From Flavobacteriales bacterium (GTDB lineage: Bacteria; Bacteroidota; Bacteroidia; Flavobacteriales_F; PHOS-HE28): a stretch of 64,000 bases of DNA. The translations under genes and the position numbers were made by a program. Position 1 is the stretch's first letter. Every line of letters starts with the position of its first letter. The DNA lies in the NCBI GenBank assembly GCA_016715895.1, contig JADJXH010000004.1:218876-282875 (forward strand). Reading direction: 5' to 3'. This document shows positions 6,287 to 59,183 of the stretch, one piece after another. The notes under the pieces are model-generated. The model was given only the letters and a program-made list of their open reading frames with translations. It searched no databases and was not told the DNA's origin.

Positions 6287-6323
6287 TGCATGCTCCCGAA
6301 GGAGGATCGCTACCTGATCACGG

Positions 6324-6461: not shown

Positions 6462-6480
6462 CGATGGAAAGAACGCGGGG

Positions 6481-6488: not shown

Positions 6489-6512
6489 GGTGGTGGACGG
6501 ACTCCGGCAGGG

Positions 6513-8216: not shown

Positions 8217-8390
8217 CCTGTGAAGGTAGGTCACGCGGTACAACGCGCCGGTGCTTGTTGAATTGCGCCTACCCCCTGACACGCGTCATTCGACAATGCC
8301 CGTAGTGAGTTGGATGGACCCGAAGCCCCGGTCCGCTCGACAAAAAGGAAAGGCGATGGGGAAGAACGTTGTGCCCGGAAAGGTTCGCGA

Positions 8391-8834
8391 TCAGAAGCCG
8401 TGTTGCTCACCCCGTTCGATGACCTCTTGAAGCAACCGCAGATCCTTCCTCGCCACCCCATTGGGAGCCGTGGCCAACGCCTTCCGTGCCAACTCCGCGA
8501 ATCCCGGCAGATGGGGATTGCCTGCGCTCCAATACCCTGCGGGGTGGTTGATCCGTAGCAGTGCGTTCAACAGGTCGCCCGGATAGAATTCGGTCTCCAT
8601 CCAGGGGTCGCTCGCCAATAGCGCCAGGGCTTTCGGCACGAGGTGGCGCAGGCATTCGTTCTGGCCGATCAGGAAGCGCAGGTCGGCAGCCGACAGTTGA
8701 CCGATAGGGATGCGGTGCAGGGCAAAGTAGCGGCGCACGACCTCACTGTCGTCAGCATCAGGCACAGGCTGCGTCCAGGTCCACCCGCCCAAGGCACTGA
8801 TGCTATGCCGGTCGGGCTCCTTCTCCTTGTGCAT
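8391..8834 (-). CDS. CdiI-like contact-dependent-inhibition immunity protein (orphan)
   Basis: PIGQLSAADLRFLIGQNECLRHLVPKAL...EFYPGDLLNALL fits the 'DLRxxIGQxxGLxxLVP.A...YPGDLL' CdiI immunity pattern. Confidence 0.7.
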   Translation of the reverse strand: MHKEKEPDRHSISALGGWTWTQPVPDADDSEVVRRYFALHRIPIGQLSAADLRFLIGQNECLRHLVPKALALLASDPWMETEFYPGDLLNALLRINHPAGYWSAGNPHLPGFAELARKALATAPNGVARKDLRLLQEVIERGEQHGF

Positions 8835-8853
8835 GGAGGTCGTTGCCGCTCAG

Positions 8854-9228
8854 CTACACTTCGTACATCAACACCGCCACCTCGTCCTTGATCCGCTCGA
8901 AGTCGCCATCGGCGGTGAGCAGGGGGATCTGTTGGGTCAGGGCCGTGGCGGCCACGATGGCATCCGGGATCTTCAGGCGGTAGGTCTTCCGTATGCGGAT
9001 GGCCTCTTCCATGATCCGGGCATCCAGCTCGATCATCGGCCACTCGTTCACGAACGCGGTCACGGCCTTGGCCTCTGCTCGGCTCATGCCCGGCTTGCTG
9101 AGCAACTCCATGTAGGTAATGAACGAAATGACCACCCGTTGACCTGAAATGGCATCGGCGGCGGACCTGTCCCCGCGAAGCAGAAAGAGGGCCACATTGG
9201 TGTCCAACACCAGGCTCTCACCACTCAT
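8854..9228 (-). CDS. vapC: VapC/PIN-domain toxin
   Basis: LVLDTNVA, ITYMELL, LKIPDAIVAATA and LLTADGDF. Start placed at ATG 9228. Confidence 0.9.
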   Translation of the reverse strand: MSGESLVLDTNVALFLLRGDRSAADAISGQRVVISFITYMELLSKPGMSRAEAKAVTAFVNEWPMIELDARIMEEAIRIRKTYRLKIPDAIVAATALTQQIPLLTADGDFERIKDEVAVLMYEV

Positions 9229-9394
9229 CCCGCCACTTGCGCTGGAGTGCAACAGGGTCTTCGTCGAGCTTGAGAACACCCACGTACTTGTAAACGTCCA
9301 CCGGCTTACACGCCTTGGCACGCTGGGTGCGGAGCTTCCGCAGCTGCATCTGGATGCGCTGCTTGGACATGCCCCGTTTGATGACCACCACCAT
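9218..9394 (-). CDS. Putative antitoxin
   Basis: 58 aa (MVVVIKRG...VGVLKLDEDPVALQRKWRDEW) overlapping the vapC start; typical size and position for an antitoxin. Confidence 0.75.
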   Translation of the reverse strand: MVVVIKRGMSKQRIQMQLRKLRTQRAKACKPVDVYKYVGVLKLDEDPVALQRKWRDEW

Positions 9395-9429
9395 ACCACG
9401 AAGATACAGCGGTCGCGGATGGACGTGCG

Positions 9430-44644: not shown

Positions 44645-44715
44645 TCGATGAAGGCGGCGCCCGAGCCGGCGCTCCCAACGCACGACGCGCCGCGATGCGG
44701 CGCGCCGGAAATGGC

Positions 44716-44740
44716 GAAGGGCCCGGAACCCGGGCCCTTC
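44716..44740. terminator. Hairpin between convergent genes
   Basis: gaagggcccg-gaacc-cgggcccttc, a perfect 10-bp stem. Confidence 0.7.
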
Positions 44741-44761
44741 GATCGTATGGAGCCAGGCTCC

Positions 44762-44890
44762 TTACTTCTTCTTCGCGGCCTTCTTCGTGGCCTTCTTCGC
44801 GGCCTTCTTGGTGGCCTTCTTCGGAGCGGCCTTCTTGGTCGCCTTCTTCGCGGCCTTCTTCGTGGCCTTCTTAGCTGCCTTCTTTGCCAT
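44762..44890 (-). CDS. 42-aa histone H1-like Lys/Ala-rich protein
   Basis: Below the ORF-track cut-off. ATG at 44890 gives MAKKAAKKATKKAAKKATKKAAPKKATKKAAKKATKKAAKKK-TAA, followed by a hairpin terminator. Confidence 0.85.
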   Translation of the reverse strand: MAKKAAKKATKKAAKKATKKAAPKKATKKAAKKATKKAAKKK

Positions 44891-45142
44891 GACGGTTAAG
44901 GGTTTGAGACAAACGTATCACCTCGAACGCATCCACGCATCAAATGGTTGCAAGGATGTACCAACCAAATAGTGTTGATAACGATGAAGTGCGATCATCG
45001 ATCCTCGCATCGCATCGCGGTCATGCGCGCATCCGTTCGTTCGCATCGGTCGCATGCATCACGTGATGCACATGGTGCTCCTGCATCGCGTCGCCGCCAT
45101 CACGCATCGCTCCTGCCATCGATGCGTTCGGTGCCAAGCCGA

Positions 45143-45355
45143 TCATCCCACCGCACGCATCCGGTTGCCCTTCGCCTCGTGCGTGAGCTCGCACAGGCCG
45201 AGCGCCTCCATCAGCGGTGGCAGGTACACGCCGAAGCGTCCACGCAGACCCTTCTTCAACCCATACCAGCCACCCACCGGGTTCTGCGGTGAACGCCCCC
45301 AGGCTTCCACGGTGCCTTCCTTGGCCGGCTTCTGCTCATCGGCCCCGCCGAGCTC
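45143..45355 (-). pseudogene. C-terminal fragment of a conserved hypothetical protein (DUF6855-like by recollection)
   Basis: ELGGADEQKPAKEGTVEAWGRSPQNPVGGWYGLKKGLRGRFG..PPLMEALGL; the expected N-terminal half is not recognisable upstream. Confidence 0.5.
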
Positions 45356-45511
45356 CCTGGATCGCATGCGGACGTCCAGATGAGTCGCATGGGCTCCGAT
45401 CGGCATGCGCAAGGGGACTGATCATTGATCGAAGCGCGTTCGCGCGATGCCTTGCGGAAGGGCAGCGTCCGTCATGGCCGCGTTGCCGGCCCTGGTGCGG
45501 AGCGCTTCCGC

Positions 45512-46060
45512 TCAGCGGAGACCCGCAGGCAGCGGCCACCGCTTATGCGCGCCGGTGAGCCGAGCGAGCAGCAAAGCGAAGCCGAAGAGGGCATCCTGCA
45601 ACCAGAACGGCATGCCCGCCAGCCGGTACTCCTTCCGCATCTTCCACAACAGGTGCATGGCGGCCAAGGGCGGCACCTTGTTCCAATCGCCGCCGCGTTC
45701 CATCGCCGTATCGCCCATCGACTGCAGCATCCATTCGATATGCAGCGCCGGCTCGTACCAGAACTCCGCCTCCACCCGCTCGGTGGCGCTCCCATTGCGG
45801 AAGTTGTGCGCCTCGCCAGAACGGATCACAGTGCTCTGCCCGGGACCGAGGGTCACCTCCTTCTTGCCGATGGTCACGATCAAGGTCCCGCTGTTCACCT
45901 TGAAGCCCTCTTCCTGCCCGAAGTGGACGTGCGGACCCGGGCCTTTGTTGCCAGGCCCAAGGCTCAACGTGGCCTCGCTTCGTTGGCCGTTGGTGCGCTC
46001 GCGGGCATCGTTGAACTGGATGCGCTCGCCGATGGCATGGAGGTCGATCGTCCGTTTCAT
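45512..46060 (-). CDS. Cupin domain protein
   Basis: GPGPHVHFGQEEGFKVNSG...GEAHNFRN cupin motifs; start at ATG 46060. Confidence 0.85.
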   Translation of the reverse strand: MKRTIDLHAIGERIQFNDARERTNGQRSEATLSLGPGNKGPGPHVHFGQEEGFKVNSGTLIVTIGKKEVTLGPGQSTVIRSGEAHNFRNGSATERVEAEFWYEPALHIEWMLQSMGDTAMERGGDWNKVPPLAAMHLLWKMRKEYRLAGMPFWLQDALFGFALLLARLTGAHKRWPLPAGLR

Positions 46061-46093
46061 GCCGTTGCGGTTTCCAGCAAAGCTGATCGGTCT

Positions 46094-47213
46094 TATTGAT
46101 CCGGCATCGATATAGCGGACGATCGGCACGATCTGTGGATCTTGCCGAGGCATGCGCGAGAACGACTCCAGGAAGCTGTCGATGCCCGAGCTCAATGAGC
46201 GTCGTAGGCAGGCGGTGCAATGCAGGCTCAAGGGCATGGGCCTGAAGGAAACGGCCGAACTCTGTGGCATGTCCCGCAACACGGTGAACGAAGCCTGGCA
46301 ACGGTACAAGGCCGGTGGCTGGAAGGCCATTCGTGTGTGGAAGACCGGTCGCCCGGTGGGCAAGGGACGCATCCTGACAAGTGAGCAGGAGAAGGAGACA
46401 CAACGGCTGATCCGTGACAGAACGCCCGATCAGTTGAAAATGCCTTATGCGTTGTGGAACCGGCAAGCGGTGCGCGAGCTGATCGAGCGGCGCTACGACC
46501 GCAAGCTGGCCATACGCAGTGTGGGGCTCTATCTGGAGCGCTGGGGATTTACGCCGCAGAAGCCACTGCGCAAGGCCTACGAGCAGCGACCGGAGGCGGT
46601 GCGCAAGTGGCTGCACGAGGATTATCCGGCCATCCGTGCACGTGCCAAGGCTGAAGGTGCCGTGATCCACTGGGGCGATGAGACCGGTCTGCGCAGTGAT
46701 GACGTTCGCGGGCGCAGCTACTCCCTGCGAGGCCACACTCCCGTGGTCAGGGTGAACCACAACCGCCACGGCTGTTCGGTGATCTCCACGGTGACCAATC
46801 GCGGGGAAATGCGCTGGATGGTCTTCAAGGGCGCACTGAACAGCAGCATCCTGATCGGCTTTCTGAGAAGACTGGTCAAGGATAGCGACAACAAGGTGTT
46901 CCTGATCTTGGACAACCTCAGGGTCCACCACAGCAAGCCGGTCAAGGAATGGCTCGAGGAGCATCTGGAGAGCATCGAGGTCTTCCACCTGCCGAGTTAT
47001 TCGCCCGAACTCAACCCGGTGGAAGTAGCGAACGCAGCGCTGAAGGATGCCGTCACCAAGCACGCTCCAGCACGCAAGAAGGGGCAGCTTGAACTCTTCA
47101 CATCACGCTTCCTGCGTTCCCTCCAGCGACACCCCAAGCGCATCATCGCACTGTTCCAGAAAGACACCGTTCGTTACGCAGCCTGAGTCCAGATCATGAA
47201 TGCCGGATCAATA
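46094..47213 (+). mobile_element. IS630-family insertion sequence
   Basis: Terminal inverted repeats ATTGATCCGGCAT (46095-46107) and ATGCCGGATCAAT (47200-47212), a TA dinucleotide at both ends, and a single transposase ORF. Confidence 0.93.
46152..47186 (+). CDS. IS630 DDE transposase
   Basis: N-terminal HTH, GFTPQKP, WGDETG, LILDNLRVH and LPSYSPELNPVE. Confidence 0.95.
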   Translation: MRENDSRKLSMPELNERRRQAVQCRLKGMGLKETAELCGMSRNTVNEAWQRYKAGGWKAIRVWKTGRPVGKGRILTSEQEKETQRLIRDRTPDQLKMPYALWNRQAVRELIERRYDRKLAIRSVGLYLERWGFTPQKPLRKAYEQRPEAVRKWLHEDYPAIRARAKAEGAVIHWGDETGLRSDDVRGRSYSLRGHTPVVRVNHNRHGCSVISTVTNRGEMRWMVFKGALNSSILIGFLRRLVKDSDNKVFLILDNLRVHHSKPVKEWLEEHLESIEVFHLPSYSPELNPVEVANAALKDAVTKHAPARKKGQLELFTSRFLRSLQRHPKRIIALFQKDTVRYAA

Positions 47214-47325
47214 AGCAATGCTGTGCAAGTCTCGCTCCACCGGCACTTCCATGCCCTCCTCATCCGAGGAGCAGGGTTCGAAGCTGGACGCGCCCTTTCT
47301 ATCTTCGTGCGTTACGTATCTCGCC

Positions 47326-50190
47326 ATGAACCAGCCCCAGGCCAAGACCGGCACCTCCGCCCCTCCCGCCGCCAAGACCCAGTCCGCCCCGGCCTCCTCC
47401 AACAAGGCAGCCGTGGAGGTCGACCTCGCCTACATCGATGGTGTGGCCTACCCCATCCACAAGGGCGAAACGATGCTCGCCTTCCTGAAGCGGCACAAGG
47501 GTCCCAACCCGGTGCCCACGCTCTGCGACGCGCCCAACCTGGAGCCCTTCGGCAGCTGCCGCGTGTGCAGCGTGGAGGTGGCCCTTCAGGAGGACGGCCC
47601 CAGCAAGGTGATGGCCAGCTGCCACATCCCCGTGGGCAAGGGCATGTACATCACGGTGAACAGCCCGCGCATGGAGCGGCTGCGCAAGAACATCGTGGAG
47701 CTGGTGCTCACCGACTACGACACCGAGCGGCTGAAGACCGAGGACCACGGGCGGAACGAACTGTACAATGTCGTCCAGCAGATCGGCTTCGACATCGACA
47801 GCGTGCGCTACCCCAAGGGGAAGAACCACCTCGACACGCCGATGGACACGAGCCATCCGTACATGGTGAGCGACCTCAGCGCGTGCATCAGCTGCTACCG
47901 GTGCGTGCGCGCGTGCGACGAGGTGCAGGGCGAGTTCGTGCTCACCATGGCCGGCCGCGGCTTCGACAACCACATCGTCAAGGGCACCAACGAAAGCTTC
48001 AAGGACAGCGATTGCGTGAGCTGCGGCGCCTGCGCACAGGCCTGCCCCACCAGTGCCATCACAGACGTGTTCCGCGCCAAGGAGACCAAGGCCGATGAAG
48101 TGGTGCGCACCGTGTGCACCTATTGCGGCGTGGGCTGCAACCTGGAGGTGAAGGTGAAGGACGGCAAGGTCGCCGGCATCACCGCACCGCTGGAGGCCGA
48201 GGCCAACCAGGGCCACACCTGCCTCAAGGGCCGCTACGCCTTCCGCTTCTACGACCACCCCGAGCGCTTGCGCACCCCGCTCATCCGCAAGAACGGCGAG
48301 CTCGTGCCCGCCACCTGGGACGAGGCCTACGACTTCATCGTGGACGGCTTCATCCGCATCCGCGAGCAACATGGTCCGGACGCGCTGGCCGGCGTGAGCA
48401 GCGCGCGCTGCCCCAACGAGGAGAACTACCTCATGCAGAAGTTCTTCCGCGCGCAGGTGGGCACCAACAACATCGACGCGTGCGCGCGCGTGTGCCACAG
48501 CCCCACGGCCCTGGGCATGCAGAAGACCTTCGGCACCGGCGCGGCCACCAACAGCATCGACGACCTGAAGGACACGCACACCATCATGGTGATCGGTGCG
48601 AACCCCACCGACGCGCACCCGGTGACCGGCGCCAAGATCAAGCAGCAGATCATGAAGGGGAAGACCCTGATCGTGATCGACCCGCGCCGCACCGAGCTGG
48701 CCCGCTACGCCCACTACCACCTGCAGCTGAAGCCCGGCACCAACGTGGCCCTGCTGAACATGATGATGCACTTCATCGTCAAGGAGGGCTGGGTGAAGCA
48801 GGAGTTCATCGACCAGCGCACCGAGGGCTGGGCCGATTTCAAGAAGGAGATCCTCGCCGTGGACATCGACGCCATGGAGCGCGAGACCGGTGTGGACCGG
48901 AACCTGGTGCGTGAAGCCGCGAAAGCCTACGCCAGCTCGCCCGCCGCCATGAGCTTCCACGGCCTGGGCGTCACCGAGCACTACCAGGGCACCTTCACCG
49001 TGATGCAGATCGCCGACCTGGCGATGATGACCGGCAACATCGGTCGCCGCGGCGTGGGCGTGAACCCGCTGCGTGGCCAGAACAACGTGCAGGGCGCGGC
49101 CGACATGGGCTGCCAACCCCACCAGGGGGCAGGCTACTTCGCGGTGGACGAGCCTGCGAACATCCGGATGTACGAGCAGTTCTACGGCGTGGAGCTGCCC
49201 CACCACGCGGGCAAGAAGATCCCGCAGATGTACGACGCCATGCTCGCGGGCACGCTGAAGGCCTTCTGGGTGGCGGGCGAGGACATGGCGCAGACGGACC
49301 CCAACACCCTGCACGTGCGCAAGGCCCTGGGCCAGCTCGAGCTCTTCGTGGTGCAGGAGCTCTTCATGACCGAGACCGCCAAGCTCGCCCACGTGGTGCT
49401 GCCCGCCAGCAGCTTCCTGGAGAAGAGCGGCACCTTCACCAACGGCGAGCGCCGCATCCAGCGCGTGAACGCCGTGGTGGAGCCCATCGAAGGCACCAAG
49501 AGCGACGGGCAGATCACCTGCGACATCATGGAGCGCTACGCCGCGAAGACCGGCAGGCGCAGCGGCAACGCCAGCAAGGAGTACCACCCGAGATGGGTAC
49601 TGGAGGAGATCAGCCGCATCGTGCCCTTCTTCGCCGGGGTGAAGTGGGACGAGCTGGGCGAGAACGGCAAGCAATGGCCCGTGAAGCCCGACGGCAGCGA
49701 CACCAAGATCCTGCACGCCGACACCTTCAAGCGCGGCCTCGGCAAGTTCATCTTCAACCAATGGGAGAAGAGCCCCGAGGTGCGCGAGAACGAGAAGGAC
49801 TACCCCTACATCATCACCACCAACCGCGAGCTGGAGCACTACAACTGCGGCGCCATGACGCGGCGCACCGGCAACGGCGAGATCCTCACCGAGGACGTGC
49901 TGCTGATCAACCCCGCCGACGCGGAGAAGAACGGCATCGCCGAGGGCGACATGGTGTGTGTGGAGAGCCCGCGTGGCAAGGTGGACATCAAGGCCCGCAT
50001 CACCGACGAGGTGAAACCCGGCATCCTCAGCAGCACCTTCCACTTCCCGGAGATCATGCTCAACATCATCACCAGCAGCGTGAGCGATTCACTGGCGATG
50101 TGCCCGGAGTACAAGGTGGTGACGTGCAGGATACGCAAGGCGAAGAAGGCGCACCTCCGTCAGGCTGGAGAAGTGGTACTGAAAGCCTGA
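47326..50190 (+). CDS. fdhF: Formate dehydrogenase alpha subunit (Mo/W-bisPGD, Cys-type)
   Basis: N-terminal Fe-S motifs (CRVC, CISCYRCVRAC, CVSCGACAQAC, CTYCGVGC), ARVCH active-site Cys-His, LRGQNNVQG; start at ATG 47326 after a TATCTTCG box at 47300-47307. Confidence 0.95.
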   Translation: MNQPQAKTGTSAPPAAKTQSAPASSNKAAVEVDLAYIDGVAYPIHKGETMLAFLKRHKGPNPVPTLCDAPNLEPFGSCRVCSVEVALQEDGPSKVMASCHIPVGKGMYITVNSPRMERLRKNIVELVLTDYDTERLKTEDHGRNELYNVVQQIGFDIDSVRYPKGKNHLDTPMDTSHPYMVSDLSACISCYRCVRACDEVQGEFVLTMAGRGFDNHIVKGTNESFKDSDCVSCGACAQACPTSAITDVFRAKETKADEVVRTVCTYCGVGCNLEVKVKDGKVAGITAPLEAEANQGHTCLKGRYAFRFYDHPERLRTPLIRKNGELVPATWDEAYDFIVDGFIRIREQHGPDALAGVSSARCPNEENYLMQKFFRAQVGTNNIDACARVCHSPTALGMQKTFGTGAATNSIDDLKDTHTIMVIGANPTDAHPVTGAKIKQQIMKGKTLIVIDPRRTELARYAHYHLQLKPGTNVALLNMMMHFIVKEGWVKQEFIDQRTEGWADFKKEILAVDIDAMERETGVDRNLVREAAKAYASSPAAMSFHGLGVTEHYQGTFTVMQIADLAMMTGNIGRRGVGVNPLRGQNNVQGAADMGCQPHQGAGYFAVDEPANIRMYEQFYGVELPHHAGKKIPQMYDAMLAGTLKAFWVAGEDMAQTDPNTLHVRKALGQLELFVVQELFMTETAKLAHVVLPASSFLEKSGTFTNGERRIQRVNAVVEPIEGTKSDGQITCDIMERYAAKTGRRSGNASKEYHPRWVLEEISRIVPFFAGVKWDELGENGKQWPVKPDGSDTKILHADTFKRGLGKFIFNQWEKSPEVRENEKDYPYIITTNRELEHYNCGAMTRRTGNGEILTEDVLLINPADAEKNGIAEGDMVCVESPRGKVDIKARITDEVKPGILSSTFHFPEIMLNIITSSVSDSLAMCPEYKVVTCRIRKAKKAHLRQAGEVVLKA

Positions 50191-50193
50191 TCG

Positions 50194-50640
50194 ATGCGCA
50201 TCTACATCGACACCTCGGTCTTCGGTGGTTGTTTCGACGAGGAGTTCGAGGAATGGTCCTTGAAACTCTTCGAGCTGGTCGCAACCGGCAAATACACGGT
50301 GGTGATCTCGGATGTGACCGAGGATGAGTTACGGGATGCACCCGCACATGTCCGCGAAGTATTGAAGGACCTTTCGCAGAAGCAGTTGGAGGTGGTCAAA
50401 CTCACGGAGGAGTCAAGAGCATTGGCCCATGCCTATGTCAAGGAGCGCATCGTCACCGCCAGGTGGAAGGCGGATACGGAGCACATCGCTGTCGCCACCA
50501 TCGCCCAGGTTGACCTTCTGGTGAGCTGGAATTTCAAGCACATCGTGAATTACGACCGCATCCGGCTCTACAACGCTGTAAATTTGAAGCACGGCTACAA
50601 ATTGCTCGAGATCCGTAGCCCAAGAGACCTGACCACATGA
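50194..50640 (+). CDS. PIN-domain toxin-like protein
   Basis: IYIDTSVFGG, DTEHIAVAT and LVSWNFKHIVN. Confidence 0.88.
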   Translation: MRIYIDTSVFGGCFDEEFEEWSLKLFELVATGKYTVVISDVTEDELRDAPAHVREVLKDLSQKQLEVVKLTEESRALAHAYVKERIVTARWKADTEHIAVATIAQVDLLVSWNFKHIVNYDRIRLYNAVNLKHGYKLLEIRSPRDLTT

Positions 50641-50822
50641 ACACCGAAGCCAGAAAGAAGAAGCGCTTTGACGCCGTGGCCATGGTGCGCGAGATACGTG
50701 AGGCCCACTATCGCCGAGACACCGACCCCAACTTCGATCCAGCGGAGTTGAAGCGCATCAAGGCAAAGTGGACCAAGTTGCTTGAGGAGGACCTGAAGGC
50801 GCGGGGTAAGAAAGCGGCTTAA
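50637..50822 (+). CDS. Putative antitoxin downstream of the PIN gene
   Basis: 61 aa, KKKRFDAVAMVREIRE; ATGA overlap with the PIN stop. Confidence 0.7.
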   Translation: MNTEARKKKRFDAVAMVREIREAHYRRDTDPNFDPAELKRIKAKWTKLLEEDLKARGKKAA

Positions 50823-50824
50823 CA

Positions 50825-51075
50825 ACCGACGAGGTGAAGCCTGCCTACCGGCAGGCAGGCCCGGCATCCTCAGCAGCACCTTCCACTTCCCCGTGATCAT
50901 GCTCAACATCATCACCAGCAGCGTGAGCGACAGCCTGGCGATCCCGTTAGGGCGGGACAGGTCGTGCCCGGAGTACAAGGTGGTGATCCCGCTGGGGCGG
51001 GACAGGCTGTGCAGGATCCGGAAGGCGCGGAAGGCGCACTTGAGGAAGGCCGGCGAAGTCCAGGTGAAGGCATGA
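50825..51075 (+). pseudogene. fdhF: fdhF 3'-end relic copy 1, with three palindromic insertions
   Basis: Aligns to about 50002-50190 (TDEVKPGILSSTFHFP...KA*), with insertions at 50840-50859, about 50941-50961 and 50986-51006. Confidence 0.95.
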
Positions 51076-51401
51076 GCTTGAGAGCACTGCTGACAGCGGT
51101 TCTAGCGCTATGCCTGATCGGGGCAACGCTGCCATCGCACCCGCTTCATCTGTCCGGTACAGTTCGGTTCAAGAGTGAGCGAGTGGACTTACGCGTGGAA
51201 GGGCTCAGCCTCTTTGTGAAAGCAGGTGGTCGGATCCTTGCGAAGAGCGATGTTGATAAGGATGGTCGATACGCCATCAACTTTACTCCAGGTGACCAAC
51301 CTACTGTCGACTTCTACTATGCGGGCCTTGGTCACGATACCACCTTCATCAGGTCCTTCACTCGTTTCGAGAGCGATGTATTGATCTGGAATATTGACTA
51401 A
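51072..51401 (+). CDS. Small secreted hypothetical protein
   Basis: MSLRALLTAVLALCLIG signal peptide, beta-rich 109 aa; ATG overlaps the relic's TGA. Confidence 0.7.
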   Translation: MSLRALLTAVLALCLIGATLPSHPLHLSGTVRFKSERVDLRVEGLSLFVKAGGRILAKSDVDKDGRYAINFTPGDQPTVDFYYAGLGHDTTFIRSFTRFESDVLIWNID

Positions 51402-51449
51402 TGAGCACGCATTGGAACCTTAGTGCGCCTGCCTGCCGAAGGCAGGGCC

Positions 51450-51703
51450 AGGTGGACATCAAGGCCCGCATCACCGACGAGGTGAAGCCCGACATCCTCA
51501 GCAGCACCTTCCACTTCCCGGAGATCATGCTCAACATCATCACATCAAGTGTGAGCGACTCACTGGCGAGCCAGCTTTGGCGGGACAGGTCGTGCCCGGA
51601 GTACAAGGTGGTGATCCCGCTTGGGCGGGACAGGCTGTGCCGGATCCGGAAGGCGAAGAAGGCGCATTTGAGGAAGGCGGGAGAGGTGGTGCTTAAGGCG
51701 TAG
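51450..51703 (+). pseudogene. fdhF: fdhF 3'-end relic copy 2, with two in-frame palindromic insertions
   Basis: VDIKARITDEVKPDILSSTFHFPEIMLNIITSSVSDSLA-[SQLWRDRS]-CPEYKVV-[IPLGRDRL]-CRIRKAKKAHLRKAGEVVLKA*. Confidence 0.95.
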
Positions 51704-51841
51704 GTTCTTGGGGCGTTCCGGCTCGAAGACTCGCCGTCGGGCCATCCGCTCGTAGTCCTCGCCGCCCTCGTTCCTCAGTCGGCTGTGGGCTTTCCGCTTC
51801 AATGCGTCGCGCGGCTTAGTTTTGACTTGAGCAATTGACCG

Positions 51842-52996
51842 ATGGCAAAGAAGCAGTACAAGGTTCCGGTTTCCGGGGTGGTGGCGCAGTACGCCAGGAC
51901 GAGCCTTGGCCTATCGGTCGTGGATGCCTGCAAGATGCTGGAGATTGAGGCTGAGGAATTGGAGGCCATTGAATCCGGTGTGGAGCAGCCAGGGATTTTC
52001 TTGCTCAAGTCGATGGCTAGGGTCTACAAGCGGTCTTTGACTTTCCTGCTCCTCACCGAGGTGCCTTACGAGAAGCCGTTACCACGCGACCATAGGACAG
52101 CCGGCTCTGTCAAGCTTGACCATTTCCATTCGAAGACCATCCTTACAGTTCGGAAAGCCCGTACGCTCGCCATCTCTCAAATAGACCTGCTCAGGAACTT
52201 GAACTTGCCGGTGCCGGCGTTCAAGCACCGCTCGACGTTGCAGGATGATCCCAAGGCATTAGGACAAAAGCTGAGGCAACAGCTTGAGTTGTTCCACCTC
52301 CGCGAGGAGGGTATTACAGATGCGCAGGCCTTGGAACATACCATCGAAGCGGTCTCAGCTCTTGGCGTGCTGGTCTATCAACTGAGTCTGACCCAGGACG
52401 GCCTACGGGGCTTCTCCGTTTTGGACGAGGAGGTACCGATCATCGTTCTGAAACGGCGAGGGGAAATGCCGACCGCGAGATTGTTCACGCTTTTCCATGA
52501 ACTCGGTCACGTCATCCTTGGAGAAAGCGGCATGTGCGACCTGCACGCAGCAGATGGGGAGGCAATAGAACATTGGTGCAACAGCTTTGCCGCAGAGGTC
52601 CTGTTGCCGAGAGAGGAGCTGCGGCAACACACGGTGGTCGTTCAGCACCTCGCTGCAAATGCGGGTAAAGAGTGGGCAAGGGTGGAGTTGGCCAATATCG
52701 CCAAGGGATACCATGACGGCTTGGAGGTGGTATTGCGGGCATTGCTTTCTGAGAAGCTCACCACGCCAGAATTCTATGAGGAGCACCACCTGAAATGGAA
52801 AGAGAAAGCCTTTGGACGGGCAAAGAAGGGCCAGCCACGCGATACGATCAAAGGGAAAGTGCAGGAACGCGGACGTTCGTTCGTGCGCTTGATCTTCAAT
52901 GCCTTTGACCGTGAACGGATCGGCGCCATTCAAGCCTCGCAACTCCTTGATGTGCCGATGGACCGCTTCTCCCAAGCCCGTCAACTGGTAGTATGA
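51842..52996 (+). CDS. XRE-family HTH plus ImmA/IrrE metallopeptidase fusion
   Basis: N-terminal HTH (ARTSLGLS...LEAIESG) and FTLFHELGHVIL (HExxH) followed by EHWCNSFAAEVLLP. Confidence 0.92.
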   Translation: MAKKQYKVPVSGVVAQYARTSLGLSVVDACKMLEIEAEELEAIESGVEQPGIFLLKSMARVYKRSLTFLLLTEVPYEKPLPRDHRTAGSVKLDHFHSKTILTVRKARTLAISQIDLLRNLNLPVPAFKHRSTLQDDPKALGQKLRQQLELFHLREEGITDAQALEHTIEAVSALGVLVYQLSLTQDGLRGFSVLDEEVPIIVLKRRGEMPTARLFTLFHELGHVILGESGMCDLHAADGEAIEHWCNSFAAEVLLPREELRQHTVVVQHLAANAGKEWARVELANIAKGYHDGLEVVLRALLSEKLTTPEFYEEHHLKWKEKAFGRAKKGQPRDTIKGKVQERGRSFVRLIFNAFDRERIGAIQASQLLDVPMDRFSQARQLVV

Positions 52997-53513
52997 TGAA
53001 CTTGTTCGATGAGGATGAGGCCATCTATGCGTTCGACAGTGATGCGTTGGTGACACTTGAGCGATACTACAGCGACCTATCCGTCTTCGATGCGCTTTGG
53101 CAGGACCTGGCATGGCTTTCCCTCGCAGGCCGCTTCAAAGTCATCGACTTCGTGTACGACGAGGTAGTGGATAGCTACAAGGGCGACCGGGGGTTCCTGA
53201 AGTCCTGGTTGAAGAAGCAGCGCAAATACTGCTTCTGGGAAACCGATGAGAAGGCGATGATCTTATCGCAGCGGGTCATCAACGAGAATGTTAGGTCTGG
53301 GTTTCTGAAGCCTGGCAAACTGATTGGAGAGCGGGATGAGGCTGATCCATTCCTGATCGGGACGCTGCGGTAGAAGGTTTCATCATTGTCACCAAGGAGA
53401 AGACAACGGTCTCCAACAAGTTGCCGCAAGTGGCAGCGAAGTATGGTGCTCGCACCATCGGCATCGCGGACTTCTTGAAGGATCGCGGATTCAAGCTACA
53501 GCGCGGGTCTTAA
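52993..53513 (+). pseudogene. DUF4411-like PIN protein, frameshifted
   Basis: YAFDSDAL...EADPFLIG; the continuation AAVEGFIIVTKE...KLPQVAAKYG...DFLKDRG lies in another frame, shifted near 53360-53365. Confidence 0.8.
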
Positions 53514-53597
53514 ACTCCCCCGCTGCCGCGAGTCTGTGAATCGTGGCCTTCACCGCACCCCAGCCACCCCCTTCATCACCGCTGCGCTCATCCGTTA

Positions 53598-53649
53598 GGC
53601 TTGTTCGTCGTGCCGCAGTCCGACCGTGTGGTCGATGGTATGTACCGGC
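53598..53649 (+). repeat. About 50-bp direct repeat X, copy A (copy B at 57874-57924)
   Basis: ggcttgttcg-tcgtgccgcagtccgaccgtgtggtcgatggtatgtaccggc versus ggctcgttcgcccgtgccg--gtccgtccgagtggtcgatgatatgtaccggc. Confidence 0.75.
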
Positions 53650-53715
53650 TTGCCCAGTACCATGATCGCTGAGGTCAAGTGCGTGGCCCCACCATTGGGA
53701 ACGAACGTTCCGGGC

Positions 53716-54702
53716 TCACATCAAGAAGCCGTTCTCCTGCTCCACGGGGCCGGGGATGTCGGTATCGCCGATCATTTCGCGCAGGTCGATCTCAATTCCG
53801 CGTGCGATCGAGGTGATGGGCACATCGTTGTAGGTGCCTTCGAAGGGGTTCTCGGAATAGTCACCGATCATCTCCATCAGGAAGAAGATCCAGATGATGA
53901 GCGCGCTCAGGAAGGGTGATACCCAGAAGAGCCAACCCGCTGAACGGCCGATGACATCGAGCATGCCCAGCGGCACGAACACGGCGAAGACAAGCGTCAG
54001 CCACAGCGCTGTGCTGGCGTACTGGCGCGGGAAGGGGAAGTTCTTGATCCGCTCCGCACGTCCCTGTTCCGCATACAGCTCAGCGACATGTCCGTGGAAG
54101 GCCATGTGCCGGAAGTCATCGAAGTAGCCGGCATCCCGCAGCTCCTGCAGACGGATGCTCTGGTTGCGCAGCAATTGGGTGGCCAGGTTGCTTTGCTGGT
54201 ACACGCCGGACAGCTCCTGCTCGGGCAGGTATTTGGACATCTCCGCCTTGCATACCGGTCCGGGTTGCTCGCTCATCCGGGGCAGGTTCGCACTGTGCTC
54301 CAGCTCACGCGGATGCTCCCAAGCACGGGGCATCCGGAGCTGGTGGCGAAGGGCGGTGAGCCAGGCGATATGGCGATGGACGAGCTCGCGGCGGATGGCC
54401 TGGTCGTCCGGGCCCTTCACGAACGAGCAGACCGCAGCACCGAACGCGCGGCTGCTGTTCACGATGCCGCCCCAGATCTTGCGCGCCTCCCACGTGCGGT
54501 CGTACGAACTGTTGTTCTTGAAGCCGAGGTAGAAGGCCACCGCGATGCCGATGACGCTGATGGGCTGCCAGGGGATGCTGAGATCCGTGTGGAGCAGGTG
54601 AACAAGGATGTTCACCACGGTTGCGTAGGCCAGCCCGATGACAAAAGACCTCCTGGATCAGAAAAAGGTCATGAAGAAGCCGTAGTTGCGCTTGATGTAC
54701 AT
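53716..54702 (-). pseudogene. Bestrophin-like (UPF0187/YneE) channel gene with an in-frame TGA at codon 15
   Basis: FKNNSSYDRTWEARKIWGGIVNSSR, ERIKNFPFPRQY and ENPFEG; the upstream in-frame ATG at 54702 reads MYIKRNYGFFMTFF*SRRSF. Confidence 0.8.
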
Positions 54703-54842
54703 GGGTGTGCTTGGGAGCGTGAAGATGGGGAATGCGGCAGGTCGTCGCTTGCATCCGCGATCGACCGGTCCGGAGATGCACGGGACAAGGGCCTCCACGG
54801 TTGAGCTCATGCCTGGCATCGCACCACGGTGGCCATCACCCA

Positions 54843-54968
54843 CTCGCCCGCGTTTGCAACGCGGGCGATGATCCCGGCGCGCTTGCAGCGCGCACCGCTT
54901 CCGGCTCACATGGGTCATGGTCGTTGCAAACGACCTGCTTCCACGCCCGCGTTACAAACGCGGTCGAG
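54843..54968. repeat. 126-bp four-hairpin element (REPIN/MITE-like), copy A
   Basis: 25-bp terminal inverted repeats ctcgcccgcgtttgcaacgcgggcg and two internal hairpins with TTGCA loops. Confidence 0.88.
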
Positions 54969-55051
54969 CTCTGGCCAACGCGGGTCAGCGAAGGCTACCC
55001 CATCGGGTGGAAAGCCCGCGCGGGCACGCCTGCCCCGGGCCTGACCCGGGG

Positions 55052-55150
55052 GTGGACATCAAGGCCCGCATCACCGATGAGGTGAAGCCGGGCATCCTCT
55101 CTGGCACCCTCCACTTCCCGGAGATCGTGTTCAACATCATCACCATCAGC
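55052..55150 (+). pseudogene. fdhF: fdhF 3'-region relic copy 3 (first half)
   Basis: VDIKARITDEVKPGILSGTLHFPEIVFNIIT, preceded by the palindrome cctgccccgggcctgacccgggg. Confidence 0.92.
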
Positions 55151-56540
55151 GCGCATGCACCACCTCGAACCGTGCCCGTGCCAGGCTGCGGCCGTTGGCA
55201 TCACACAGGGTGGCCACATAGAGCCCCCCGGCCAGCGGGGAGGTGTCCACAACGACGCCGTCCGCTGATGCACCCGCCTGCTCCACCAACCGGCCAGCAG
55301 CATCCGTGATCTCGATCCACGCCGCCTGGGCCGCGCCGTCAAGGCGGATGTACATCGCATCATCCGCAGGATTGGGGCCCAGCGTCATGACGTTCATGTC
55401 GGTCGCTTCTTCCACAGCCGCGACCAGGCAGTTGAGGATCACGCCCACGTAGGCACCGCTGCTGGCGGCGATCACGATGTCCGGGAGCGCATCGGCATTG
55501 AAACGGCCCACGGCGAAGTCGATGGGATTCACGGCGGCGATGGAATGCACGGGAGGGCCGAACTGGCCCGCACCGTAGCCCGGGAACACCCGCACCGAAT
55601 TGTTGGCGTAGTCCGCCACCACCAGGTCGCCGAAACCGTCGAGGTCCATGTCCACTGACCGCACCAGCGCGGGACTGATGCCGCCGTACATCGTCACGGG
55701 CGCCGCGAAGCCACCGGTACCATCGCCCATGCGGAAGGAGAGGGAGTCCGGGGACGGATACGAGTTGGACACCACCACGTCCATGTCGCCGTTCGCATCC
55801 ACATCGATCGCCGAGGCGAAGATGCTGGTGTGCGGATGCGTGACGTGGGTCCGCGTTCCGAAGGTGCCGGGCCTTGTGCCCCACAGGATGCTCCAGAAGT
55901 GGACGACCTCGCCCAAGCCGGCCAGGTGGGTGTAGAGCACATCGAGGTGGCCATCCTCATTGAAGTCGGCGAGGTCCAGGGAAGTGGCCGGGACATCGGT
56001 GGGATGATCCGCGTGCGGCTGGAAGGTGCCATCGCCGTTGCCGATCAGCACGGCCAGGCCACCGCCACCCGCGCCATGGGGAACGAGCAGGTCGATGGCC
56101 CCGTCGTTGTCGAGGTCGCGCGCCATCAGGGTCCACGTTTCCCCGGAAGGGATGGCGTACGGGACAGGGGCATCAAAAGCTCCGCCGCCCAGGTTGAGCA
56201 GCACCTGCACATGGTCCACATGCGCGGTCACCAGGTCCGCGCGCGTGTCGCCGTTCAGATCGGCCGCGATGATGTCCACCGGGTACATCCCCACCGGCAG
56301 CGTGACGGCGGGCTGGAAGCTGCCGTCCCCATTACCGAAGAAGATCGACAGGTCGCCAGTGAGGTGGTTGCTCACGGCCATGTCCAGCAGTGTGTCATCG
56401 TTCAGGTGGCCGGCGGAGATGCCCCAGAGGTCAAGGCCGCCCGAGGCGACGAAGCCGGTATGGTCCAGGCAGATGTTCTGGCTGCGGAGCCCGCCGCCCA
56501 ACGTGAGCAGGACCAACGCGCATGGAACGTCGAAGCGCAT
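55146..56540 (-). CDS. FG-GAP/VCBS repeat protein with T9SS sorting domain
   Basis: Repeated DLNGDxxxDL motifs and a C-terminal LGPNPA...DAAGRLV...GGLYV domain. Confidence 0.9.
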   Translation of the reverse strand: MRFDVPCALVLLTLGGGLRSQNICLDHTGFVASGGLDLWGISAGHLNDDTLLDMAVSNHLTGDLSIFFGNGDGSFQPAVTLPVGMYPVDIIAADLNGDTRADLVTAHVDHVQVLLNLGGGAFDAPVPYAIPSGETWTLMARDLDNDGAIDLLVPHGAGGGGLAVLIGNGDGTFQPHADHPTDVPATSLDLADFNEDGHLDVLYTHLAGLGEVVHFWSILWGTRPGTFGTRTHVTHPHTSIFASAIDVDANGDMDVVVSNSYPSPDSLSFRMGDGTGGFAAPVTMYGGISPALVRSVDMDLDGFGDLVVADYANNSVRVFPGYGAGQFGPPVHSIAAVNPIDFAVGRFNADALPDIVIAASSGAYVGVILNCLVAAVEEATDMNVMTLGPNPADDAMYIRLDGAAQAAWIEITDAAGRLVEQAGASADGVVVDTSPLAGGLYVATLCDANGRSLARARFEVVHAR

Positions 56541-56740
56541 GGTCCGAAATTATCACCCTGGATGCGCCGCGCTCCGATCCTGGTGCCGCTCCGTTCAAAA
56601 GGATGGGCGATCGTTATTCACCGGCACGGTGCTGATCGTGCCTTAGCCCGCACGGCTACGCGTCTCCTACTTCCGCAGCTGGCGCGGATCTGTGATCCGT
56701 GTCCACCTCATCCAGCATAAGCAAGCCAGCCGATCGGCTG

Positions 56741-56968
56741 TCACTTCCGCATCCACCTTGCATTGGGGCTCATCCGATAGTGCTTGTCATCATAGGCCAT
56801 CAATCGAGGGTCAGCAGTGGCCTTCTTGGACACATGCGGCTCTCGCCCGGCGCGGATGGCTGCGCGTTCCACACACCGGAAGTGGTGGTTGGCTAGTCGC
56901 TTGTAGGGCTTCGCCGTACTGCCTTTACAGATACCGAAGTAAGGTGTATGTTTCCTTGAACGGGCCAT
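56741..56968 (-). CDS. Small basic conserved hypothetical protein (MxRSRK...MRK type)
   Basis: 75 aa, MARSRKHTPYFGI...KRLAN...DDKHY...WMRK; pattern recalled from a widespread uncharacterised family. Confidence 0.65.
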   Translation of the reverse strand: MARSRKHTPYFGICKGSTAKPYKRLANHHFRCVERAAIRAGREPHVSKKATADPRLMAYDDKHYRMSPNARWMRK

Positions 56969-57023
56969 AGCAGGTCAAGACGACTGTTGTGCGGCGCGGG
57001 TTGTCCGACTCGTGCCTCTCCCG

Positions 57024-57149
57024 CTCGCCCGCGTTTGCAACGCGGGCGATGATCCCGGCGCGCTTGCAGCGCGCACTGCTTCAGGCGTACATGGTTCATG
57101 GTCGTTGCAAACGACCTTCTTCCACGCCCGCGTTGCAAACGCGGGCGAG
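57024..57149. repeat. 126-bp four-hairpin element, copy B
   Basis: Same length and architecture as 54843-54968; its terminal arms are exact reverse complements. Confidence 0.88.
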
Positions 57150-57157
57150 CTCTGACC

Positions 57158-57199
57158 GTGCCGGACCCGGAAGGCGAAGAAGGCGCATTTGCGGAAGGC
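57158..57199 (+). pseudogene. fdhF: fdhF 3'-end relic copy 4 (short second half)
   Basis: gtgccggacccggaaggcgaagaaggcgcatttgcggaaggc differs at only 2 nt from the same stretch of copy 2. Confidence 0.85.
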
Positions 57200-57228
57200 A
57201 TTCGCTGCCGCGGGTCTGTAGCTCACGC

Positions 57229-57606
57229 CTATACCGCCACCACCCGCCCCTGCATCCACTCACCGATCTCATCCGCAGACGAACGACCTTCAGCGACGCG
57301 GATGGTCAGCTCGTAGAGTTCATCCTGCGTTGCTTCGATCCGGAAGCCCTCCTTGCGCAAGAGCAGAAGTGCGAGACCGAGGCCTGTGCGCTTGTTACCG
57401 TCCAACCACGGATGCCGGATGATCACGCTCTCCATCAGCGCGGCAGCCTTGGCGACCGGTGAAGGATAGAGATCCTCACCACCGAATGTTTGGTATGGCC
57501 GTGCCAAGGCGGCTTCCAAAGCACCCTGATCTCGCAAACCCTGCGCTCCTCCGAATGCCTCGATGGAACGCGCGTGAAACTTTTCGGCGAGGTCCAACGA
57601 GATCAT
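57229..57606 (-). CDS. Fic/Doc (death-on-curing) family toxin
   Basis: GLRDQGALEAALARP and HPWLDGNKRTG. Confidence 0.93.
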   Translation of the reverse strand: MISLDLAEKFHARSIEAFGGAQGLRDQGALEAALARPYQTFGGEDLYPSPVAKAAALMESVIIRHPWLDGNKRTGLGLALLLLRKEGFRIEATQDELYELTIRVAEGRSSADEIGEWMQGRVVAV

Positions 57607-57788
57607 TTCGCGAGCCGGGCCAACACCTCCCGGTTCTCCTCGATGATCTTGTCGATCAACTGATCGTCGCTCTCCTTGGTAGAGCCGACCTTCAGCTCAT
57701 CGAGCAGATCGATGAGCTTGATCAACGCCTTGTCTGAAAGGCCTTCGATGGCTTTCGCGGCCTTCTCGCGGAGTTCCTTGGTGCTCAT
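57603..57788 (-). CDS. Putative antitoxin for Doc
   Basis: 61 aa ending KIIEENREVLARLAK, 4-nt overlap with doc; TAGTTTTG box at about 57826-57833. Confidence 0.8.
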   Translation of the reverse strand: MSTKELREKAAKAIEGLSDKALIKLIDLLDELKVGSTKESDDQLIDKIIEENREVLARLAK

Positions 57789-58052
57789 GGGTTGCGCCGT
57801 AGCACGGCGGAGGTGTATGGTCCAACAAAACTAACGCAACAGCCCCCCCCCCAATGCAGGGCCACCTGCTTTGGGCTCGTTCGCCCGTGCCGGTCCGTCC
57901 GAGTGGTCGATGATATGTACCGGCGCGCCGCCCACACGCGGCGCAGCGCTGATGGGAACAGACTCTAGTACTACCTTCTTAACGATCCTTGTGCTCCAGC
58001 TGCCAGCGTGGACCGATCTGCGCCACTACCTTGTCCGAACATCCAAGCCCGC

Positions 58053-59183
58053 GTGCACACCAGCCGTTCCTTCCTCGCTTCGCCGCTCCTTTCATCGCTG
58101 GTGATCATGGCCTCCTGCGACGCGCAGGTCCCGGCATCCACAGCGGGTGATGTGGTCGTTGCAGCATCGCCGGGACAGGAAGTGCGCATGGACACCGCCC
58201 AGATCTCCGACTACATCGTTGCGGCCTTGGAGGATAGCCAGGGCAACCTTTGGTTCGGCACCGTGGGCGATGGTGTGGTCCGCTACAGCGCCGACCCATC
58301 GGTCGTTCCGGGAGAACGCCTCCGCTACTTCACCTCGAAGGATGGCCTCGCCGACATGGTGGCCTCCAGCATCGTGGAGGATAAGCAAGGCCACATCTGG
58401 ATCGGATCGCACGATGGCGCTACACGTTTCGACGGCAAGACCTTCACCGCCTACAAGGCACCGGAGGGATTGCACGGGGCGGGCTGCGTTCTGCTTGTGG
58501 ACCGCAACGGGACCTTGTGGGCCGGCACCAACGATGGCGCCTTCCGCTTCGATGGCACGCGCTTCCAGCCTTTCGACATTCCCACTCCAGCGATCAAGGA
58601 ACCTTCTCACAAGTGGGTGGCCGGCAAAGTGTGGGAGATCATCGAGGATAGCCGGGGTAACATCTGGTTCGGGCGCGATGGGTACGGCGCGTGCAAGTAT
58701 GACGGCACGTCCTTCACCCATTTCACCAAGGAGGACGGTCTCTGTAGCAACAACGTGGCGAGCATTGTGGAGGACCCGCAAGGCCACCTCTGGTTCGGAT
58801 CCATCACCTCGGACTTTCCGCCAGTACAGGAAGGTGGTTTGGCCCGTTACGATCCTTCGGCTTCGCTCAGGACAGGTGGCAAGGCGTTCACGCAGTTCCC
58901 CCACATGAAAGGGCTGACCGCGAACGACATCTATAACGTCTATAGGGATCGCTCAGGGAACCTCTGGATAGGTGCGGTCCGTGTGGGCGCGTACAAGTAC
59001 GACGGGAAGACCTTCACACTGTTCGACCGCACCGACCGGCCTGACCTTACCAAGTATTTCGGCATCCAAGCGTTCGTGGAGGACCGGCATGGAACGTTGT
59101 GGTTCGGCTTCAGCGGTGGGTTGTTCCGCTTCAATGGGACCGTGTTCAAGAATGTGACACGGGGTGGGCCGTGGCAGCCCTGA
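58053..59183 (+). CDS. Two-component-regulator propeller (Reg_prop) repeat protein
   Basis: Repeated EDxxGNLWFGT...G..RYDGK.F motifs; the GTG at 58053 gives a signal-like N-terminus. Confidence 0.85.
   Translation: MHTSRSFLASPLLSSLVIMASCDAQVPASTAGDVVVAASPGQEVRMDTAQISDYIVAALEDSQGNLWFGTVGDGVVRYSADPSVVPGERLRYFTSKDGLADMVASSIVEDKQGHIWIGSHDGATRFDGKTFTAYKAPEGLHGAGCVLLVDRNGTLWAGTNDGAFRFDGTRFQPFDIPTPAIKEPSHKWVAGKVWEIIEDSRGNIWFGRDGYGACKYDGTSFTHFTKEDGLCSNNVASIVEDPQGHLWFGSITSDFPPVQEGGLARYDPSASLRTGGKAFTQFPHMKGLTANDIYNVYRDRSGNLWIGAVRVGAYKYDGKTFTLFDRTDRPDLTKYFGIQAFVEDRHGTLWFGFSGGLFRFNGTVFKNVTRGGPWQP

Follow-up and report, generated by a model that had tools for sequence, protein, structure and literature searches.

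The 3' end of fdhF, the gene for the alpha subunit of an NAD-type formate dehydrogenase, is a recurrent gene-capture hotspot in a lineage of uncultured Flavobacteriales. We describe it from a 64-kb stretch of DNA of a Flavobacteriales bacterium (assembly GCA_016715895.1, contig JADJXH010000004.1, positions 218,876 to 282,875; hereafter the window, whose first letter is position 1), in which the intact gene is followed by four partial copies of its own end, all in the same orientation, with unrelated genes lying between them. The end of the intact gene is termed the native tail, its downstream copies relics, and the genes between them cargo. Variable islands beside core genes are common, and the entry of genes without any mobile-element gene is mostly unexplained; at fdhF the scars are readable, in that displaced ends are left by each insertion and synonymous recoding marks the imported end. 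We propose, with moderate confidence, that the locus is a hypervariable cargo island produced by repeated displacement of the fdhF tail, the recombination being mainly of the RecA-type homologous kind. The locus would then amount to a dated and ordered record of how, in an abundant lineage of wastewater, genes for defence, toxin-antitoxin pairs and secreted proteins were captured without an integrase.

Copies of the fdhF tail in the window

Positions along the tail are numbered from q1 (window 49940), the stop codon being q249-251. A repeat search of the window together with MAFFT alignment identified, downstream of the native copy (49975-50190), four further copies of the fdhF 3' end on the + strand (Table 1), bearing out the four same-strand copies reported in a preliminary description of this DNA; the gene order listed there is likewise borne out by Pfam. 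Relic 1 is built of q58-77, a 20-nt hairpin (50839-50858) and then q78 to the stop codon, which overlaps the ATG of the 109-aa gene behind it (ATGA). Relic 2 is preceded by the hairpin CCTGCCGAAGGCAGG (51432-51446), and its frame remains open as part of a 100-aa open reading frame (ORF; 51401-51703). Compared with the native tail, relic 1 has 39 identical codons, 12 with synonymous and 5 with non-synonymous differences, and relic 2 has 49, 17 and 4, respectively. Relics 3 and 4 hold complementary portions of the tail (q41-141 and q184-226) and may be a single relic broken up by later rearrangement; the end of relic 4, q226, is also the tail position of the strain breakpoint in relic 1 (51050) described below. 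Only two dispersed repeat families occur in the window, the fdhF tail and the 141-nt D4 element of the same array. The C-terminus of FdhF is conserved at the protein level. An exact look-up of the window's FdhF protein among public assemblies found no record.

Recurrence of the hotspot in related loci

A one-genome-per-species scan with the C-terminal 299 aa of FdhF yielded 80 loci (L numbers), the closest of which (95-65% aa identity) belong to uncultured Flavobacteriales, mostly from activated sludge, and the others mostly to Chitinophagaceae and similar bacteria. All of these relatives are metagenome-assembled genomes, assembled independently and in some cases from long reads, and genes in the loci were called by a simple heuristic of ORFs and GC content at third codon positions. 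With the window tail and each locus's own tail as queries, one to four relics were found in 21 of the 37 Flavobacteriales loci having enough downstream sequence, and zero relics, or one weak match (L070), in the approximately 40 other loci. All relic matches lie on the fdhF strand.

Relic number, spacing and cargo vary from genome to genome. The cargo of the relatives includes proteins secreted by the type IX secretion system (T9SS), Kelch and SBBP propellers, an OmpA-like protein, a HicA-like toxin and PIN and Doc modules, as well as restriction-modification genes, an HNH gene beside a MazG-like gene, a large DUF4011 helicase, Cap15 and M78 peptidases. A typical cargo gene is a + strand ORF that starts 3-100 nt from a tail stop and runs up to the following relic. 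Between distant lineages, the similarity of cargo can lie above that of FdhF itself (93% vs 74%, 93% vs 80% and 76% vs 69%). Short FdhF-tail ORFs returned by the protein search were set aside as candidate relics, being mostly pieces of frameshifted or contig-end fdhF; among them only L082/L083 added a real array. The native fdhF tail of L025 is frameshifted with G-runs (…SDPREVPAYKGGGCGG…), probably through long-read assembly error rather than as a pseudogene, and the fdhF genes of L081 and L084 are fragmented in the same way.

Imported tails at the gene and displaced tails downstream

The inserts lie between direct repeats of the target 3' end, and the incoming copy restores the gene. The best match to a given fdhF body is often very divergent in its tail: L002 and L001 have an identity of 0.95 over the body and of 0.72 over the last 175 nt, and the corresponding values are 0.96 and 0.76 for L016 and L010, 0.94 and 0.75 for L012 and L013, and 0.97 and 0.82 for L031 and L028. 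Native tails are mosaics. In L016, the foreign stretch begins at q77 and differs almost purely at synonymous sites, and L010's native tail recurs nearly unchanged (few mismatches) as a relic 660 nt farther downstream. The functional tail of L016 has therefore been imported, and the lineage's own tail displaced downstream.

Over 17 relics, the codon differences from the native tail comprise 222 synonymous and 97 non-synonymous changes (26:2 in L016, 22:4 in L006, 17:4 in window relic 2 and 12:5 in window relic 1). Given this bias, the tails must have diverged within working genes of different genomes, as decay in place would give the opposite bias; the same predominance of synonymous differences led us to reject target-site duplication through staggered cuts as a source of the copies. 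Across the lineage, the tails share 85-95% identity over 170-250 nt.

A recoded tail allele, marked by the replacement of serine AGC by TCN/AGT and by GAGTGTAAGTGACAGCTTGGCGATGTGTCC, occupies the functional position in several clades (L002, L004, L012, L015, L016, L019, L020 and L023), and in L019 it is present without cassette or relic.

The DNA behind the relics bears on the nature of the incoming unit. Element E (Table 1) was found by BLAST 0-16 nt past the native fdhF stop in the relic-free loci L007, L008, L009, L014, L017, L019, L024 and L063, and it also stands behind relics in arrays, namely behind window relic 2, in L001, L016, L031 and L054, and behind the final relics in L020 and L006. 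Where E follows a relic, that relic is therefore a former native tail with its own downstream DNA, which suggests that donors give a tail plus the DNA that lay behind it. Element E has no match in Rfam and is unstructured by folding. It also occurs upstream of fdhF, inverted, in L014 and L019, and in the window a TAnnTTTG-like box, TAGTTTTG (~51815-51822), is found shortly downstream of E, before the XRE/M78 gene.

Turnover of the array among close relatives

Strain differences were examined in assembled contigs of public metagenome runs (X numbers). Other metagenomes carry an approximately 95-97% identical fdhF-PIN-antitoxin (AT)-relic 1 stretch on contigs. The X3 and X5 contigs leave the window at 51050, within relic 1 (q226), run through 858 unrelated nt and rejoin the window at 57891, 117 nt ahead of the Reg_prop gene, and the X9 contig has a tail copy matching 51594-51691, followed by 845 nt and then by 57891. 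Close relatives are thus missing 6.8 kb of this array, the left breakpoint lying in a tail copy, and the distal array is therefore dispensable. Cargo thus turns over between strains, with breakpoints inside relics.

The PIN module of cassette 1 is also found behind fdhF in L006 (77% aa identity), in L082 (GCA_023957375.1) and in contigs of runs X1-X6. The order in L082 is fdhF-PIN-AT-relic-methyltransferase, and in L006 fdhF-PIN-AT-relic-Kelch protein-relic-D4-like-DUF7948 protein-relic-E. The relic behind this cassette has three different 5' limits, at q-40 in L006, at q41 in L082 and at q58 with a hairpin in the window, and the window form resembles what a microhomology deletion would leave of the L006 form. 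L003 and L050 have in common an fdhF-T9SS gene-relic arrangement and diverge within that relic at ~q140. Taken over all loci, native tails switch at q77, q134 and q185, strain breakpoints fall at q226-239 and relic starts span q-40 to q185.

Searches for a recombinase and for attachment sites

The lack of an integrase noted in the preliminary description is in line with our Pfam analysis, as none of the 40 window ORFs scanned, a subset of the total, has an integrase domain; the sole transposase among them is of the IS630 type (DDE_3, 46152-47186), just upstream of fdhF. Among relatives, no recombinase domain was detected in 30 individually scanned cargo proteins, in the 25 most frequent of 100 families in a pooled scan of 111 cargo proteins (in which a single weak match could escape), or in the precomputed Pfam tables of 10 further loci. 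Altogether, no recombinase was found within ~10 kb in ~45 loci, and no excisionase, replication or phage gene was seen in them. Viral contigs scanned with the conserved tail motif gave 0 matches.

Candidate sites were sought as well. Core pairs of the attC-like RYYYAAC/GTTRRRY type number 0 on both strands of 50191-57900 (shuffle mean 0.5), the cargo side of the junctions has no conserved sequence, and no dif-like 11-6-11 site is apparent by eye in the GC-rich tail. A Chi-like motif in tail ends, GNTGGTGG, was dropped, as it is 4x over-represented window-wide on both strands and absent from the window tails; it occurs 69 times in the window against 17 expected from shuffles, on both strands, possibly as an effect of codon usage.

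A model of tail displacement and its alternatives

In the model that we favour, the arriving unit would consist of a replacement fdhF 3' end (from ~q58-80 or later, to the stop) and of the donor's downstream DNA, that is one or a few genes and sometimes element E. This unit would recombine with the resident fdhF in the conserved last ~200-250 nt of the gene, so that fdhF is kept intact with an imported tail, the cargo comes to lie directly behind the stop, where it could be read through from fdhF, and the old tail is shunted downstream as a silent relic. Repeated rounds would generate a tail-cargo-relic-cargo-relic array with the newest unit nearest to fdhF. The tail copies would act as portable homology for RecA-type recombination. 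Either a circle cut out between two copies of the tail would insert by a Campbell-type single crossover, or a donor array entering as linear DNA would be exchanged by a double crossover. An occasional illegitimate join within a recipient tail, the donor DNA being anchored by fdhF homology, would found a new unit. Polarity, import of tails, turnover of cargo and breakpoints inside relics are seen in the sequences, and we infer which enzyme acts, that a circle is formed and how the DNA is transferred. Homologous recombination is favoured because switch points, strain breakpoints and relic starts are spread along the tail, and because no recombinase was found in ~45 loci, with the tail being highly similar across the lineage.

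Several points weigh against this model. The main one is that relic 5' ends cluster at q58-93, around GGTGAAGCC, in at least 10 unrelated cassettes (L001, L003, L010, L015, L020, L022, L028, L030 and others), and that the foreign stretch starts near q77 in three or four native tails (among them L016, L019 and L020). Such clustering would be expected if a site-specific recombinase acted in trans on a short core, but it could alternatively reflect the shared descent of one founding relic frame. The pattern is also restricted to one lineage, as a lineage-specific recombinase would give. No circular intermediate, excision junction or recA dependence was observed in the assembled contigs.

The clustering and the restriction to one lineage would be accounted for if integrase-less cassettes were moved by a site-specific (e.g. 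tyrosine) recombinase encoded elsewhere, acting on an att site of ~20-30 bp at q58-88 (ATCACCGACGAGGTGAAGCCCGGCATCC), with each cassette being a circle of core, recoded tail and cargo, like integron cassettes, cis-mobilizable elements (CIMEs), and pdif modules or integrative mobile elements exploiting Xer (IMEX). The uniform orientation and compactness of the cassettes agree with such a mechanism, as does a homology block that reaches the stop codon, as in elements restoring the 3' end of their target. We nevertheless regard it as rather unlikely: no such recombinase was found within ~10 kb in ~45 loci or among the scanned window ORFs, other native tails switch at q134 or q185, strain breakpoints lie at q226-239, relic starts span q-40 to q185, the PIN cassette has three relic boundaries (window, L006 and L082), the cargo side of the junction lacks conserved sequence, and no attC-like core pairs were found. 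A version of this idea, in which a lineage-specific recombinase encoded elsewhere docks integrase-less, promoterless cassettes at an attI-like site within the coding 3' end of fdhF (~q58-88), is unlikely in our view; each cassette would then bring a synonymously recoded replacement tail, the hotspot-specific mini-hairpins and the 141-nt palindrome might belong to the machinery, and the locus would be an integron-like platform for gene capture that recombines within the protein-coding sequence of a metabolic gene.

It appears improbable that the arrays are decayed integrase-bearing islands or prophages that integrated serially at the fdhF 3' end and from which the integrase and most other genes have since been deleted. 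Tail restoration and tandem att-like repeats in the same orientation are the classical output of integrative elements, tycheposons stack likewise with the older elements degraded (10.1101/2020.12.28.424599), and the mixed-strand genes and truncated relics in 51842-57788 are what decay would leave. However, no integrase, excisionase, replication or phage gene was seen in the ~45 loci, the conserved tail motif matched no viral contig, and many units are a single ORF fitting exactly between tail stop and relic, an outcome that random deletion rarely gives. If the resident tail had been duplicated in tandem once, long ago, and had then decayed, or if the copies were an assembly artefact, they would lie in direct orientation near the gene, as seen, but either origin is hardly credible. 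The copies differ mainly at synonymous sites; the allele proper to the lineage is found in the relic and not in the native tail; 21 genomes, assembled independently and some of them from long reads, differ in their cargo, in the number of relics and in spacing; and fdhF-PIN-relic 1 is reproduced in independent metagenome contigs. These two scenarios, an assembly artefact and one old fixed tandem duplication, had been raised in the preliminary description against its own interpretation and are both excluded. That interpretation, of the fdhF tail as a reusable landing pad with serial cargo, holds up in the comparison of related fdhF loci suggested there, in which 21 of 37 loci have this architecture with differing cargo, and in the strain presence/absence differences with a breakpoint in a relic. 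The associated idea that incoming DNA restores the gene is supported by mosaic native tails, by the lineage-typical tail found downstream and by the synonymous bias of the divergence.

Cargo genes and layout of the window array

Table 1. Features of the fdhF array in the window (positions in nt; q, tail numbering).
Feature	Position	Strand	Description
fdhF	47218-50190	+	990 aa, NAD-type formate dehydrogenase alpha subunit; Pfam Molybdopterin, Molydop_binding, Fe4S4, Fer2_4
Functional tail (repeat unit)	49900/49975-50190	+	Last ~215-290 nt of fdhF; repeat families D2, D5, D6
Cassette 1	50194-50822	+	PIN-like toxin 50194-50640, 61-aa partner 50637-50822
Relic 1	50823-51075 (start also read 50818)	+	q58 to stop
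Cassette 2	51072-51401	+	109-aa protein, signal-peptide-like N-terminus, low GC
Relic 2	51446-51703	+	q36 to stop; 93% over first 124 nt
Element E	51704-51841	+	~100-140 nt, motifs GGGCGTKCCGGCTCGAAG...GGGCTTTCCRCT...
Cargo block 3	51842-54618	mixed	Helix-turn-helix (HTH)/Peptidase_M78 51842-52996 +; DUF4411 52993-53373 +; bestrophin 53716-54618 - (Pfam)
D4a	54836-54976	+	141-nt palindromic element like a miniature inverted-repeat transposable element (MITE); 26-nt inverted arms, four TTGCAA-loop hairpins; DNA fold z = -6.8
Relic 3	55046-55151 (end also read 55169)	+	q41-141 only, 77-89% identity; ended by 3' end of FG-GAP gene
Cargo block 4	55146-56968	-	FG-GAP repeat protein with T9SS sorting domain (Por_Secre_tail) 55146-56540; 75-aa ORF 56741-56968
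D4b	57017-57157	+	92% identical to D4a; abuts relic 4; DNA fold z = -10
Relic 4	57158-57199	+	q184-226 only; 40/42 (95%) identical to relic 2
Doc module, last variable one	57229-57788	-	Doc/Fic toxin 57229-57606 (Pfam Fic), 61-aa partner 57603-57788
Right border of variable region and conserved flank	57891; 58008-59183	+	Border from strain contig joints; flank is the Reg_prop beta-propeller gene

The toxin of cassette 1 matches Pfam PIN_12/PIN_3 below the curated cut-off, and the 109-aa protein of cassette 2 has no Pfam match. Since the ATG of the PIN gene lies 3 nt past the fdhF stop and that of the 109-aa gene overlaps the stop of relic 1, neither cassette 1 nor the 109-aa gene has space for a promoter of its own. 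Only these two cassettes are compact, co-oriented and apparently without promoters. Farther from fdhF (51842-57788) the array is looser, with opposite-strand genes and two truncated relics, each with a D4 copy ahead of it. The GC content of the cassettes is 0.55-0.56, as against 0.65-0.67 in fdhF. Homologues of Doc are present in the hotspots of L002, L024, L029 and L030, and a Reg_prop homologue lies 4.5-9 kb past fdhF in L003, L004, L010, L018, L020, L022 and L024. In relatives fdhF is transcribed, as contigs of RNA runs cover it, and none of these contigs covers the cassettes.

D4 and small palindromes

Copies of D4 were identified in L004 (3806-3941), L005 (2901-3034 and 3064-3194), L006 (5513-5596) and L028, and in the sequences examined the element is confined to fdhF hotspots. 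It has no Rfam match, and the scan of 44000-59000 against Rfam returned no family at E<=1. The flanks of D4a and D4b are also alike.

Each of the two longer window relics has two 21-nt hairpin insertions (50943-50963 and 50987-51007 in relic 1; 51571-51591 and 51615-51635 in relic 2), of the form TCCCGCTnnGGCGGGACAGGyy, which are in frame and stand at two tail positions with common flanks GA|YGTGC. The same hairpin occurs in the hotspots of L002, L020, L030, L041 and L050, and in 1.37 Mb of loci it is nearly confined to hotspots downstream of fdhF, with one weak exception (L010 near 972). A role of these hairpins as recombination sites was rejected as the simplest reading, because small palindromes of like kinds also stand in frame inside native fdhF genes among the relatives; the hairpins resemble small palindromic elements that colonise tolerant DNA. 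In L009, L017, L020, L022 and L023, in-frame palindromic insertions are found at one site (~window 49569) within otherwise intact native fdhF, with lengths of 21 nt (L017, CTGCCTGACCGGCAGGCAGGC), 39, 42, 45 and 111 nt (CCCCTCTCCCnnnnGGGAGAGGGG type), all multiples of three, and recall the Rickettsia palindromic elements in coding sequence. In a metatranscriptome contig of run X32, fdhF-like sequence runs past window 50073 into CGCTCGGACATCTCTTGCTTCGCTGGTCAG, an in-frame 39-nt loop insertion as in L006 relic 2, and a loop-bearing fdhF allele or relic is therefore transcribed somewhere.

Other features of the window

Between the gene for a NuoF-like subunit (42950-44644) and fdhF, the interval 44648-47186 holds a CTTCTT/GGCC repeat with a period of 12 nt, whose minus strand would code for a histone-like protein rich in lysine and alanine. 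A conserved ORF of 222 aa without a Pfam match (45447-46115) is also present upstream of fdhF in relatives, and the neighbouring IS630-family transposase gene is matched by no relative locus. A possible defence cluster at 4177-9399 comprises an N6_N4 DNA methylase (4177-4968, - strand), a 589-aa protein without a Pfam match (6513-8282, - strand) and a PIN-domain protein (8854-9399, - strand).

Comparison with known systems

The fdhF array is not an integron, nor is it a cluster of attC sites lacking integron integrases (CALIN). The attC sites that lie behind each integron cassette are imperfect palindromes of 57-141 nt with RYYYAAC...GTTRRRY cores, and IntI is not required for a CALIN. Like integrons and CALINs, the proximal part of the fdhF array has co-oriented, apparently promoterless cassettes, including toxin-antitoxin pairs, beside a promoter-bearing upstream unit, with a recombination-prone repeat between cassettes and the newest cassette apparently proximal. 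Unlike them, it has neither IntI nor attC hairpin sites, its repeat is 40-290 nt of coding sequence, and its distal modules lie on the opposite strand. The comparison with an integron drawn in the preliminary description therefore stands as an analogy only, in view of the lack of an integrase and of attC-like cores, the spread of the breakpoints and the opposite-strand genes of the distal part.

The pdif modules and IMEX are small pieces of integrase-less cargo, often toxin-antitoxin pairs, that lie between repeated sites on plasmids or at dif and are moved by the Xer recombinases of the host. Arrays of small integrase-less modules bounded by repeated sites are thus common to both, but the fdhF modules are placed inside a gene whose tail has no evident dif-like site. 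The tandem islands at the 3' ends of tRNA, tmRNA or other genes, such as tycheposons, also carry and restore the target 3' end, push older and degraded units outward and leave partial target copies between units. Staphylococcal cassette chromosome (SCC) elements at rlmH are likewise target-restoring, stacking islands with their own integrase. All of these islands, however, have their own integrase (tyrosine, serine or Ccr) and a fixed core, whereas no integrase was found in ~45 fdhF loci, the units can be a single gene module of 330-630 nt, and the breakpoints vary along the tail, with a cluster of relic 5' ends at q58-93.

In their mode of working, the fdhF arrays are most like the orphan arrays of Rhs, CdiA and MafB. 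The scheme that we favour is the one already put forward for Rhs C-terminal displacement, in which a circle is excised between copies of a conserved fragment and reinserted by single-crossover homologous recombination (Jackson et al. 2009, PMC2935791). In both cases, an intact gene is followed by fragments in the same orientation that begin with variable lengths of conserved coding sequence, the incumbent end is pushed aside by the incoming unit and not deleted, the conserved and variable parts are decoupled in history and differ in GC content, and no dedicated recombinase appears to be involved. The two differ in what varies: in Rhs it is the toxin tip encoded by the same ORF, along with the immunity gene, and a changing protein end is what the system serves, whereas at fdhF, where the host gene is a metabolic enzyme, the protein end is held constant through synonymous recoding and the unrelated downstream genes vary. 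A recombinase acting in trans, if true, would make the locus a new kind of cassette platform; under tail displacement by homologous recombination, the logic of C-terminal displacement known from polymorphic toxins would extend to an ordinary metabolic gene.

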